The notes under the pieces are model-generated. The model did not search any database. It was not told the origin of the DNA and saw only the letters and a program-made list of their open reading frames with translations. This document shows positions 15,161 through 18,466 of a stretch of DNA of 64,000 nucleotides, in pieces (position 1 is the stretch's first letter; every line of letters starts with the position of its first letter). The stretch comes from Octopus vulgaris (Eukaryota). Location of the stretch: contig OX597822.1 in the NCBI GenBank assembly GCA_951406725.2, positions 64,790,001 through 64,854,000 of the forward strand, read 5' to 3'. The translations under genes and the position numbers were made by a program.

Positions 15161-15468
15161 ATATATATGTATATATATATATATATATATATATATATAT
15201 ATATATATATATATATCAATTACACCAAGTAGATTTCGGCATGTAAAAGCCCCATTCGAGGAAAATTTAAGTAATACTAAGTAATTAAGGGTTTAGCAAC
15301 GAAGTGCCTCACCAACACACCGAATTTAGAAATAGCAGTCAAAGAGATATAGCTATTCCTTCTACTAAAAGGGGGGTCTCAGTAAAAACACAGCACTTGA
15401 AAGGCAAACACAGACAGGTAAGAAAGAAAGAATGAAATGACGGCAATCTATCATGCAATTTTAAGTTA

Positions 15469-15560
15469 CCTACGGACGTACGTTTCGAGATCAAGTTTTA
15501 GGATAGCATAAGAATTAGAAAATTCTACTTTACCCAAACTTCTTCTCTCATCGGCGCAGG
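15469..15560 (-). ncRNA. Type I hammerhead ribozyme (unit 1)
   Basis: CCUGCG-CCGAUGA-GAGA..long stem II..UCUC-GAAA-CGUACG-UC-CGUAGG. Confidence 0.8.
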
Positions 15561-16056
15561 ATACCACAATTATGAATAATTGTATATTAAATTTTGAGAT
15601 ACTAGAATGCATCATCTCAACTCAGTGTCAGAGCGAGCCAAAGCATGACCAGTACCACGAAATTCAAAGTTTGAATGAAAGTTTGTGTCACCAGCCCCCT
15701 TCCACCCGCGTGTAGCCAAGACAAAATGCTGCGGTCATTTACTGGGATAAAATATGGTTATCAGTAATAATAAAGGGTGAAATTAATTAATTAGGGATAA
15801 TTATCAATTACACCAAGTAGATTTCGGCATGTAAAAGCCCCATTCGAGGAAAATTTAAGTAATACTAAGTAATTAAGGGTTTAGCAACGAATTGCCTCAC
15901 CAACACACCGAATTTAGAAATAGCAGTCAAAGAGATATAGCTATTCCTTCTACTAAAAGGGGGGTCTCAGTAAAAACACAGCACTTGAAAGGCAAACACA
16001 GACAGGTAAGAAAGAAAGAATGAAATGACGGCAATCTATCATGCAATTTTAAGTTA

Positions 16057-16148
16057 CCTACGGACGTACGTTTCGAGATCAAGTTTTAGGATAGCATAAG
16101 AATTAGAAAATTCTACTTTACCCAAACTTCTTCTCTCATCGGCGCAGG
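16057..16148 (-). ncRNA. Type I hammerhead ribozyme (unit 2)
   Basis: Same motif as unit 1. Confidence 0.8.
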
Positions 16149-16643
16149 ATACCACAATTATGAATAATTGTATATTAAATTTTGAGATACTAGAATGCAT
16201 CATCTCAACTCAGTGTCAGAGCGAGCCAAAGCATGACCAGTACCACGAAATTCAAAGTTTGAATGAAAGTTTGTGTCACCAGCCCCCTTCCACCCGCGTG
16301 TAGCCAAGACAAAATGCTGCGGTCATTTACTGGGATAAAATATGGTTATCAGTAATAATAAAGGGTGAAATTAATTAATTAGGGATAATTATCAATTACA
16401 CCAAGTAGATTTCGGCATGTAAAAGCCCCATTCGAGGAAAATTTAAGTAATACTAAGTAATTAAGGGTTTAGCAACGAATTGCCTCACCAACACACCGAA
16501 TTTAGAAATAGCAGTCAAAGAGATATAGCTATTCCTTCTACTAAAAGGGGGTCTCAGTAAAAACACAGCACTTGAAAGGCAAACACAGACAGGTAAGAAA
16601 GAAAGAATGAAATGACGGCAATCTATCATGCAATTTTAAGTTA

Positions 16644-16735
16644 CCTACGGACGTACGTTTCGAGATCAAGTTTTAGGATAGCATAAGAATTAGAAAATTC
16701 TACTTTACCGAAACTTCTTCTCTCATCGGCGCAGG
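16644..16735 (-). ncRNA. Type I hammerhead ribozyme (unit 3)
   Basis: Same motif, one substitution in stem II. Confidence 0.8.
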
Positions 16736-17230
16736 ATACCACAATTATGAATAATTGTATATTAAATTTCGAGATACTAGAATGCATCATCTCAACTCAG
16801 TGTCAGAGCGAGCCAAAGCATGACCAGTACCACGAAATTCAAAGTTTGAATGAAAGTTTGTGTCACCAGCCCCCTCCCACCCGCGTGTAGCCAAGACAAA
16901 ATGCTGCGGTCATTTACTGGGATAAAATATGGTTATCAGTAATAATAAAGGGTGAAAATAATTAATTAGGGATAATTATCAATTACACCAAGTAGATTTC
17001 GGCATGTAAAAGCCCCATTCGAGGAAAATTTAAGTAATACTAAGTAATTAAGGGTTTAGCAACGAATTGCCTCACCAACACACCGAATTTAGAAATAGCA
17101 GTCAAAGAGATATAGCTATTCCTTCTACTAAAAGGGGGTCTCAGTAAAAACACAGCACTTGAAAGGCAAACACAGACAGGTAAGAAAGAAAGAATGAAAT
17201 GACGGCAATCTATCATGCAATTTTAAGTTA

Positions 17231-17322
17231 CCTACGGACGTACGTTTCGAGATCAAGTTTTAGGATAGCATAAGAATTAGAAAATTCTACTTTACCCAAA
17301 CTTCTTCTCTCATCGGCGCAGG
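17231..17322 (-). ncRNA. Type I hammerhead ribozyme (unit 4)
   Basis: Same motif as unit 1. Confidence 0.8.
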
Positions 17323-17942
17323 ATACCACAATTATGAATAATTGTATATTAAATTTTGAGATACTAGAATGCATCATCTCAACTCAGTGTCAGAGCGAGC
17401 CAAAGCATGACCAGTACCACGAAATTCAAAGTTTGAATGAAAGTTTGTGTCACCAGCCCCCTTCCACCCGCGTGTAGCCAAGACAAAATGCTGCGGTCAT
17501 TTACTGGGATAAAATATGGTTATCAGTAATAATAAATGGTGAAATTAATTAATTTGGAATAATTATCAATTACACCAAGTAGATTTCGGCATGTAAAAGC
17601 CCCATTCGAGGAAAATTTAAGTAATACTAAGTAATTAGGGGTTTAGCAACGAATTGCCTCACCAACACACCGAATTTAGAAATAGCAGTCAAAGAGATAT
17701 AGCTATTCCTTCTACTATTCCTTCACCCTTTATTATTACTGATAACCATATTTTATCCCAGTAAATGACCGCAGCATTTTGTCTTGGCTACACGCGGGTG
17801 GAAGGGGGCTGGTGACACAAACTTTCATTCAAACTTTGAATTTCGTGGTACTGGTCATGCTTTGGCTCGCTCTGACACTGAGTTGAGATGATGCATTCTA
17901 GTATTTCAAAATTTAATATACAATTATTCATAATTGTGGTAT

Positions 17943-18034
17943 CCTGCGCCGATGAGAGAAGAAGTTTGGGTAAAGTAGAATTTTCTAATTCTTATGCTAT
18001 CCTAAAACTTGATCTCGAAACGTACGTCCGTAGG
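17943..18034 (+). ncRNA. Type I hammerhead ribozyme (inverted unit)
   Basis: Stem I CCTGCG 17943-48 / CGTAGG 18029-34; core CCGATGA 17949-55; stem II GAGA/TCTC; GAAA 18017-20; stem III ACGTACGT; GUC cleavage triplet ending 18028. Confidence 0.8.
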
Positions 18035-18466
18035 TAACTTAAAATTGCATGATAGATTGCCGTCATTTCATTCTTTCTTTCTTACCTGTCTGTGTTTGCC
18101 TTTCAAGTGCTGTGTTTTTACTGAGACCCCCTTTTAGTAGAAGGAATAGCTATATCTCTTTGACTGCTATTTCTAAATTCGGTGTTGGTGAGGCAATTCG
18201 TTGCTAAACCCTTAATTACTTAGTATTACTTATATATATATATATATATATATATATATATATATATATATATATACATATTATATATATATATATATAT
18301 ATATATATATATATATATGTATGTATGTGTGTGTATATGTCCCCCAACATCGCTTGACAACCGATACTGGCGTATTTACGTCCCCGTAACTTAGCGGTTC
18401 AGCAAAAGAGACCAATAGAATAAGTACTAGGCTTACAAAGAATAAATCCTGTATGTATGCATGCAT

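Follow-up and report, generated by a model that had tools for sequence, protein, structure and literature searches.

A dispersed family of non-coding hammerhead repeats with Penelope-like insertion ends in the genome of Octopus vulgaris

A 588-bp tandem array that folds back on itself

The 64,000-nucleotide stretch of Octopus vulgaris DNA analysed here (GenBank assembly GCA_951406725.2, contig OX597822.1, positions 64,790,001 to 64,854,000 of the forward strand; hereafter the window, numbered from its first letter) contains an array of hammerhead-bearing 588-bp repeats, which belongs to a dispersed non-coding family whose copies lie in (TA)n runs; their 3' ends are fixed at two sites, their 5' ends are random, and many of them have fold-back arms. 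A first-pass annotation, made from the letters of the window, had described four units of 587-588 bp, a partial unit and an inverted copy, and this layout was borne out: the head-to-tail units begin at 15217, 15805, 16393 and 16980 (588, 588, 587 and 587 bp) and are 99.15-100% identical to the reference unit beginning at 15805, while the inverted, incomplete copy (17722-18232) is 99.0% identical to it. Positions marked q are counted along the ribozyme-sense strand of one unit (q1 at window 16392, q588 at 15805), with the predicted cut at q330/331. The parts of the array and its flanks, where sites A and B denote the family's two usual 3' end sites, are as follows.

15007..15198, plus strand: SINE-like (short interspersed nuclear element-like) host repeat, left half, running into its internal (TA)n; 92% identical to positions 13-203 of the uninterrupted copy L160
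15160..15216: left (TA)n target run
15215..17717, minus strand: Arm 1, 4.26 units arranged head to tail, with the minus strand as RNA sense
15217..15804, minus strand: unit of 588 bp
15752..15862, minus strand: one copy of the ~100-nt tail between site A (q526-542) and site B (q35-58)
15805..16392, minus strand: unit of 588 bp, the reference
16393..16979, minus strand: unit of 587 bp
16980..17566, minus strand: unit of 587 bp
17567..17717, minus strand: partial unit of 151 bp, the 5'-truncated end of Arm 1
17718..17721: fold-back junction, 4 extra bases that join the 5'-truncated ends of both arms
17722..18232, plus strand: Arm 2, 0.87 of a unit with the plus strand as RNA sense, whose end lies at site A
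18231..18326: right (TA)n target run
18275..18449, plus strand: SINE-like host repeat, right half; 87% identical to positions 167-343 of copy L160

Since the two TA runs split one SINE-like repeat into collinear halves, the whole array block represents a single insertion, in which the inverted copy is the arm bearing the family's standard 3' end. The SINE-like repeat itself, which is abundant and carries an internal TA/TG run as the insertion target, was also seen in the window at 2720-3175, 18466-18844, 55362-55704 and 60545-61008.

The array had been called non-coding, and its longest stop-to-stop frame is indeed only 67 aa, so a coding role was rejected. ARAGORN detected no tRNA in the 64-kb window, and the GC content of the unit is 37%. 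The array ends are polar and variable and lack flanking repeats of the long terminal repeat (LTR) type; no search for a primer binding site or polypurine tract was made.

A long-stem-II hammerhead in a young family

A hammerhead descriptor scan of both strands of the window returned exactly five type I hammerheads, which agrees with the four minus-strand cuts and the inverted-copy hammerhead given in the first-pass annotation.

15469..15560, minus strand: type I hammerhead, U4C core, predicted cut after 15475
16057..16148, minus strand: type I hammerhead, U4C core, predicted cut after 16063
16644..16735, minus strand: type I hammerhead, U4C core, predicted cut after 16650
17231..17322, minus strand: type I hammerhead, U4C core, predicted cut after 17237
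17943..18034, plus strand: type I hammerhead, U4C core, predicted cut after 18028

Three helices close the core and an NUH cut site is present. The parts that had been taken for a complete type I hammerhead were recovered as far as stem I (CCUGCG/CGUAGG), the base of stem II (GAGA/UCUC), the GAAA and the GUC site are concerned, but the core of the window copies is CCGAUGA (U4C) rather than CUGAUGA and thus departs from the canonical CUGANGA; it is in older subfamilies of the unit that CUGAUGA is found. Nor does stem II stop at the 4 bp first assigned to it, as it passes through an AG/GA internal loop into a 61-nt extended hairpin. Stem III, marginal in the monomer, consists of 2 bp plus a loop and lies inside the palindrome ACGUACGU; a weak palindromic stem III is a known sign of dimer-dependent cleavage (PMC4209133). 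The hammerhead model search suggested in the first-pass annotation came back empty, with no Rfam hammerhead match at the gathering score or at E<=10 and no other credible Rfam family. The window copies have neither the canonical hammerhead core nor an Rfam match.

A near-identical descriptor matched only one of 3000 dinucleotide shuffles of the unit, and the 146-nt ribozyme region folds with a z-score of -2.95 (2 of 200 shuffles equally good). Folded as a circle, the monomer reaches -155 kcal/mol, compared with -122+/-7 for its shuffles (0 of 60 as low) and -106 kcal/mol for the opposite strand, so the excess stability resides on the ribozyme strand only; stems I and II then have pairing probabilities of at least 0.94.

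Conservation of the stems among genomic copies, on which the first-pass proposal had been made to depend, was examined in 15 hand-picked sequences (14 stem pairs, 210 cells). Pairing is retained in 97% of the cells, five of the 14 pairs have changed on both sides, and sliding the partners against each other lowers pairing to 17-47%. Stem I changes from CCUGCG/CGUAGG to CCCAUG/CAUGGG in a sister family (family B), in which the first pair of stem II is moreover an A-C mismatch; both GAGA/UCUC and GAAA/UUUC occur at the base of stem II, and the palindrome becomes ACGCGCGU. Other families found in flanking DNA keep the long stem II, mostly with a different palindrome each, and so give the long-stem-II architecture wider support. 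Further type I hammerheads of this form were seen at L081:397-526, L077:3448-3579, L106:2016-2135 and L071:1441-1499, with the palindromes CACGUG, CAAUUG, CCGCGG and CCGG.

Searches of the genome (2.8 Gb, 227 contigs) confirmed that the family is present in many dispersed copies, as monomers, dimers and multimers. The best 40 of 1965 candidates yielded 189 matches to the unit, and exact 16-mers occur 251 times for the C4 (U4C) core, 69 times for the U4 core and 461 times for the 3' half (reversed controls: 0, 0 and 1, respectively). A 21-mer common to the unit and family B occurs 1523 times. The family B unit is ~580 bp long, tandem, 71-79% identical over alignable stretches, and has the same two end sites; it was seen at L172:1091-1668, L147-L176, L178 and L179 with a covarying hammerhead (1795 first-look candidates). 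Another family, C (L049:427-560, L194, L197-L226; 2435 candidates), has a long-stem-II hammerhead with palindrome CGAUCG, fold-backs, and ends 35 or 136 nt past the cut; no linked open reading frame (ORF) was seen.

In a tree of 96 of the 107 extracted stretches (the 11 distant ones were excluded, and some rows span a fold-back junction and show long branches), the 57 C4 rows of the family form one clade (100/99) nested among U4 lineages, one separate C4 copy lying in family B. Median nearest-neighbour distances are 0.47% for C4 and 1.4% for U4. We conclude from the nesting and the smaller distances that U4C is the derived state, characteristic of the youngest and largest subfamily. Assembled contigs from 4 of 24 listed runs, whose kind was guessed as RNA, cover 30 of 30 unit bins and include both C4 and U4; they bridge unit end to unit start, but as tandem DNA gives the same joint this was not used as evidence.

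Insertion ends and candidate Penelope donors

Penelope-like elements (PLEs) often carry a tail at one end only, produce inverted 5'-truncated copies and are biased towards (TA)n (PMC8557442). A purified PLE protein starts reverse transcription at two internal sites that bound the tail, cuts and extends both target strands, and is predicted to be a dimer (PMC11167929). A closely similar pattern emerged from 104 mapped loci of the 588-bp family, which were taken as top matches or in chromosome order and all hold ribozyme sequence. Fifty-three of them fold back with an inverted 5'-truncated arm, and 51 have one orientation. (TA)n lies on both sides in 85 of the 104, and 151 of 157 outer 3' ends adjoin it, as compared with 11% of background windows. 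Most of these 157 ends fall at site A (86) or site B (54) and 17 fall elsewhere, so that two sites ~100 nt apart account for 140 of them.

Within fold-backs the two arms use opposite sites: 37 combine A with B, none has A twice and one has B twice, the other 15 having an end elsewhere (p 1e-10 for the opposite-arm bias, 38 classified fold-backs). A second sample, chosen by tail motif and read by eye, gave A+B in 13 of 14 fold-backs. Among family B fold-backs picked for having an arm at B, again read by eye, the other arm ends at A in ~18 of 21 cases and never at B; opposite-site pairs make up 4 of 4 in family C and 3 of 4 in family D, which has one B+B. Immediately 5' of each site there is a predicted hairpin, and both sites also follow a common ACCCUU(A/U)AUUA-like run. 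The helices that surround site A are conserved in 13 sequences (one of them mis-cut), where both sides have changed in 3 of 25 pairs. Sites A and B are putative start sites of reverse transcription, and the two-site 3' end pattern is, by analogy with PLEs, the tail signature of that class. In vitro, no difference in start site between the strands was reported for a PLE (PMC11167929). The array in the window speaks against a strict two-site rule, since its left end coincides with neither site: the 3' end of Arm 1 (15215) sits within the tail, between the two. We nevertheless regard PLE-type insertion of the family as very likely.

The first-pass annotation had invoked a Penelope reverse transcriptase (RT) and GIY-YIG endonuclease acting in trans. 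The two 3' ends, the fold-backs and the (TA)n targets agree with the insertion part of that proposal; a partner identified by shared sequence, or linkage to Penelope ORFs, did not emerge. The units encode no RT or GIY-YIG, and hence the family is not an autonomous PLE; the PLE protein matches in mapped loci lie outside the element. Comparison by shared sequence covered 32 GIY-YIG loci and 2 Hydra-like loci, a minority of PLE families, and weighs against the trans relationship in that it gave no link to the former, one nested copy aside, and none to the latter (best match 28 nt, E 0.013). The nested copy, in L177, was rejected as a unit-PLE link because it sits in the TA run after a different PLE.

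Two PLEs of this genome were considered as donors. A Hydra-like PLE (L247:1141-3639, minus strand; L248; L242:2-931; 17650 first-look candidates) has an 833-aa frame with an RT, an Asn-rich linker and a C-terminal endonuclease, and shows the YRDD, DKT, CxxC and CxH motifs listed for the Hydra clade. Its protein gave no Pfam match to RT or GIY-YIG. A CxCX5C linker was not found, so "Hydra-like" is a label set by motifs. The RT region has 235 relatives at E<=1e-20, and the copies scored, many of which have short frames, show 82-100% identity to the query. At its 3' end the element has a long-stem-II hammerhead, (TA)n and two end sites ~150 nt apart.

The other, a Neptune-like PLE (L061:1081-4781 and L062-L072), is young, with many intact copies and two overlapping ORFs of 479 aa (no known family) and 781 aa (RT-GIY-YIG). 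Canonical endonuclease-bearing PLEs are described as single-ORF elements. The Neptune-like PLE has (TA)n at its end, a tail of ~35 nt and a short hammerhead-like fold of U3:A8 type (UUGAUAA); because of this short fold and tail it ranks second as donor, despite the shared (TA)n target. To judge from sequence, the architecture of the Hydra-like element appears to match that of the 588-bp family better, which makes it, by analogy, the best candidate donor, a call to which we give about an even chance. In a third PLE family, inspection of one copy by eye showed a hammerhead-like fold with a CCGAAGA (U4C) core in the 3' end, downstream of the ORF at L067:3082-4803.

Elsewhere in the window, four further features were recorded: six-fold tandem repetition of a 188-bp unit (31178-32351; 6.2 copies, 99% identical), in which the descriptor gives no hammerhead and which has no match in the fetched loci; a 234-bp unit in 1.8 copies (51042-51467; 94% identical); a zf-RVT fragment of a LINE-type (long interspersed nuclear element-type) element (25815-26387); and adjacent frames of 247 and 185 aa without a Pfam match (20894-22273).

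Template, rival explanations and significance

We consider the family to be, probably, a non-autonomous non-LTR retrozyme that parasitises a PLE. At the DNA level it works like a non-LTR retrozyme in every respect tested. These elements were defined, and circles of 170-400 nt demonstrated in coral, mussel and axolotl, in PMC7229834, and PLEs were proposed as their drivers (PMC7229834, Cervera & de la Pena 2020); like them, the present family has non-coding tandem units with one type I hammerhead each, GC below 50%, copies from monomers to multimers, and a proposed mobilisation by PLEs. Unlike them, it has a 61-nt stem II without the canonical loop 2 at 4 bp, has U4C fixed in its youngest clade, and is known from DNA alone, with a unit exceeding the RNAs demonstrated as circles. 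The remark in the first-pass annotation that the unit is longer than known retrozymes accordingly holds against those RNAs and against the 150-450 bp range of PMC7229834, but not against the 51-972 bp of a 2026 preprint (Li, Clavereau & Pollet, 10.64898/2026.07.22.740005). That preprint ties retrozymes to PLE pseudo-LTRs and leans towards local amplification; it samples no mollusc, and its available text is without mention of octopus, cephalopod, mollusc or tail. In the giant squid, 235 Rfam hammerheads have been counted (PMC6962438).

With PLEs that have a C-terminal GIY-YIG (Hydra clade, Craig et al. 2021, PMC8557442; PAc, Frangieh et al. 2024, PMC11167929) the family shares partial tandems, an inverted 5'-truncated arm, a one-end tail, (TA)n targets, a hammerhead upstream of the 3' end and two internal RT start sites, putative in its own case; it differs from these PLEs in having no ORF, a tail of ~100 nt rather than 30-40, and no match to the PLE ends examined. 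The satellite-2 hammerheads of newt and axolotl and the minimal hammerheads of PLEs (PMC7229834, PMC4209133) also have a weak palindromic stem III and a predicted dependence on a dimer, but a much shorter stem II and a canonical or U3:A8 core instead of U4C. Non-autonomous Chlamys elements such as MRC1 (PMC8557442) are likewise non-coding PLE dependants with multicopy head-to-tail insertions; in contrast to the 588-bp family, their 3' sequence is generally common to them and an autonomous family, and canonical hammerheads are missing from most of them. The class of element and its Penelope link are thus already in print, which limits the surprise. In the literature within reach, outside which lay supplements, subscription journals and Repbase/Dfam, we found no cephalopod retrozyme family, long-stem-II form, fixed U4C clade or counted A/B exclusion.

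What RNA serves as template was approached through the copies themselves. The 5' ends, 166 in number, are spread over the unit, with 6 within 10 nt of the cut and 5.9 expected; a linear monomer was rejected as template, since the cut shows no enrichment of 5' ends and is read through in the copies. Among 209 cut junctions 15 deviate in a 14-nt window, 13 of them by substitutions only and the remaining two, both in the degraded locus L017, by a 1-nt indel away from the cut; as none has an indel at the cut, jumping from the end of one cut monomer to the next is disfavoured. Hammerheads per arm number 45/14/3/3/0/1, as compared with 43.6/14.8/5.0/1.7/0.6/0.2 for a geometric series (first 100 C4 hits, 66 arms). 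This fall-off, together with 5' ends that ignore the cut, indicates that arrays probably arrive ready-made from circular or oligomeric RNA. Furthermore, 23 variants private to a locus, relative to the 105 loci sampled, are fixed in all units of that locus (15 across both arms, 14 across tandem units), and such array-wide variants, along with the geometric arm counts, fit copying round a circle. We therefore lean slightly towards a circular RNA template; the reverse transcription around a circle put forward at first is consistent with the copy data, which do not separate it from copying of a linear uncleaved multimer.

Several observations pull the other way. Fourteen private variants cover only part of an array, such variants have a period of 2-3 in L074, L076 and L137, and one site distinguishes the two arms of L003, none of which is predicted by a single monomer circle; such patterns could come from oligomeric circles, from linear multimers or from gene conversion at a later stage. 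Privacy itself is defined by the loci sampled. Within-locus distance is smaller than nearest-other-locus distance in only 13 of 41 loci (0.58% vs 0.37%), although the latter, being the nearest of ~90, is biased low and makes this comparison uninformative. Self-cleavage, unit-length RNA and circles are predicted from DNA alone. Stem III has a pairing probability of 0 in the monomer, the active fold lies 3.9 kcal/mol above the minimum free energy, and the double-sided stem changes represent few independent events in the hand-picked sequences. U4C "considerably decreases activity in vitro" but nonetheless supports viroid infectivity (PMC3088659); uncleaved RNA was the main insertion substrate of one PLE in vitro (PMC11167929); and cleavage failed in 8 of 9 dimers of Xenopus retrozymes (2026 preprint).

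A mechanism that would accommodate these data runs as follows. Multimeric transcripts would be cut slowly by the hammerhead, probably as a dimer via the palindromic stem III, and a host ligase would close circles of ~588 nt, perhaps also of 2-3 units. A PLE RT/GIY-YIG dimer would nick both strands of a (TA)n run, cDNA would be primed on each target strand at an internal RNA site of its own, the two sites being ~100 nt apart, and each RT would follow its template until drop-off, giving arms of 0.1-6 units joined at their truncated ends. In its most specific form, in which ~588-nt and oligomeric circles are written by a Hydra-clade PLE dimer, each subunit priming one strand at a different RNA site, and the weakening U4C became fixed since slower cleavage keeps the template intact, this proposal is tentative, possible rather than likely.

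The same PLE insertion might instead use a linear, largely uncleaved multimeric transcript, with the hammerhead weak or a passenger and no circle involved. The U4C core of the youngest clade, the partial and periodic variants within arrays, the absence of any trace of the cut site among 5' ends, and the finding that PLE insertion in vitro needs no cleavage (PMC11167929) all suit this explanation; yet linear copying cannot lengthen an array, whereas arms reach 6.3 units in a geometric distribution (45 of 66 with one hammerhead), variants are fixed in all array units (7 of 7 in L074, 5 of 5 in L137), and the ribozyme stems and stem III palindrome are kept across families, so that we consider it rather unlikely. 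It is improbable that the unit is the pseudo-LTR of an unsampled autonomous PLE and the arrays its by-products: the unit runs into itself or into flank in the 104 mapped loci and 20 more, PLE protein matches fall outside the element and the L177 copy is nested in a TA run, even though the hammerhead architecture is the same as at the 3' end of the Hydra-like element, 24 of 57 Xenopus retrozyme families matched annotated elements (PLEs in 21 of 22; 2026 preprint), and genome searches score best candidates only.

Still less probable is the insertion of a solo unit followed by satellite-like local unequal crossing-over, the model favoured by the 2026 preprint. Unequal exchange and conversion are established for tandem DNA, and the period-3 block in L074 and the partial private variants could be read in this manner; however, 15 of 23 private variants occur on both inverted arms, the number of copies per arm falls off geometrically with no heavy tail, one unequal exchange cannot yield the period-3 pattern of the 4.7-unit L137, and RT-type ends delimit the arrays of the youngest clade. 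Rolling-circle and foldback DNA transposons also show tandem and inverted copies as well as AT-rich targets, but a DNA-level mobile repeat of that kind, with an incidental hammerhead-like fold, is largely refuted by the polar combination of fixed 3' and random 5' ends; as the RNA fold is strand-specific, the ribozyme stems covary and the RT-encoding PLEs of this genome have the same end pattern, we give it a negligible chance.

The origin of tandem and inverted PLE insertions has been called undefined (PMC8557442), and the movement of retrozymes unresolved (2026 preprint). A young family with hundreds of near-identical copies makes the mechanism readable from DNA, in arrays that probably arrive ready-made and arms that use opposite putative start sites; its short RNA permits a direct in vitro test of PLE copying; and its hammerhead architecture, missed by Rfam, offers a natural fixed U4C that can be compared with a U4 sister clade. 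Were the tentative proposal of circles written by a Hydra-clade dimer true, the family would serve as a minimal substrate, free of protein, by which the tails, tandems and fold-backs of Penelope insertions are explained; several more families with long-stem-II hammerheads in this genome, likely missed by standard models, would join the same system.

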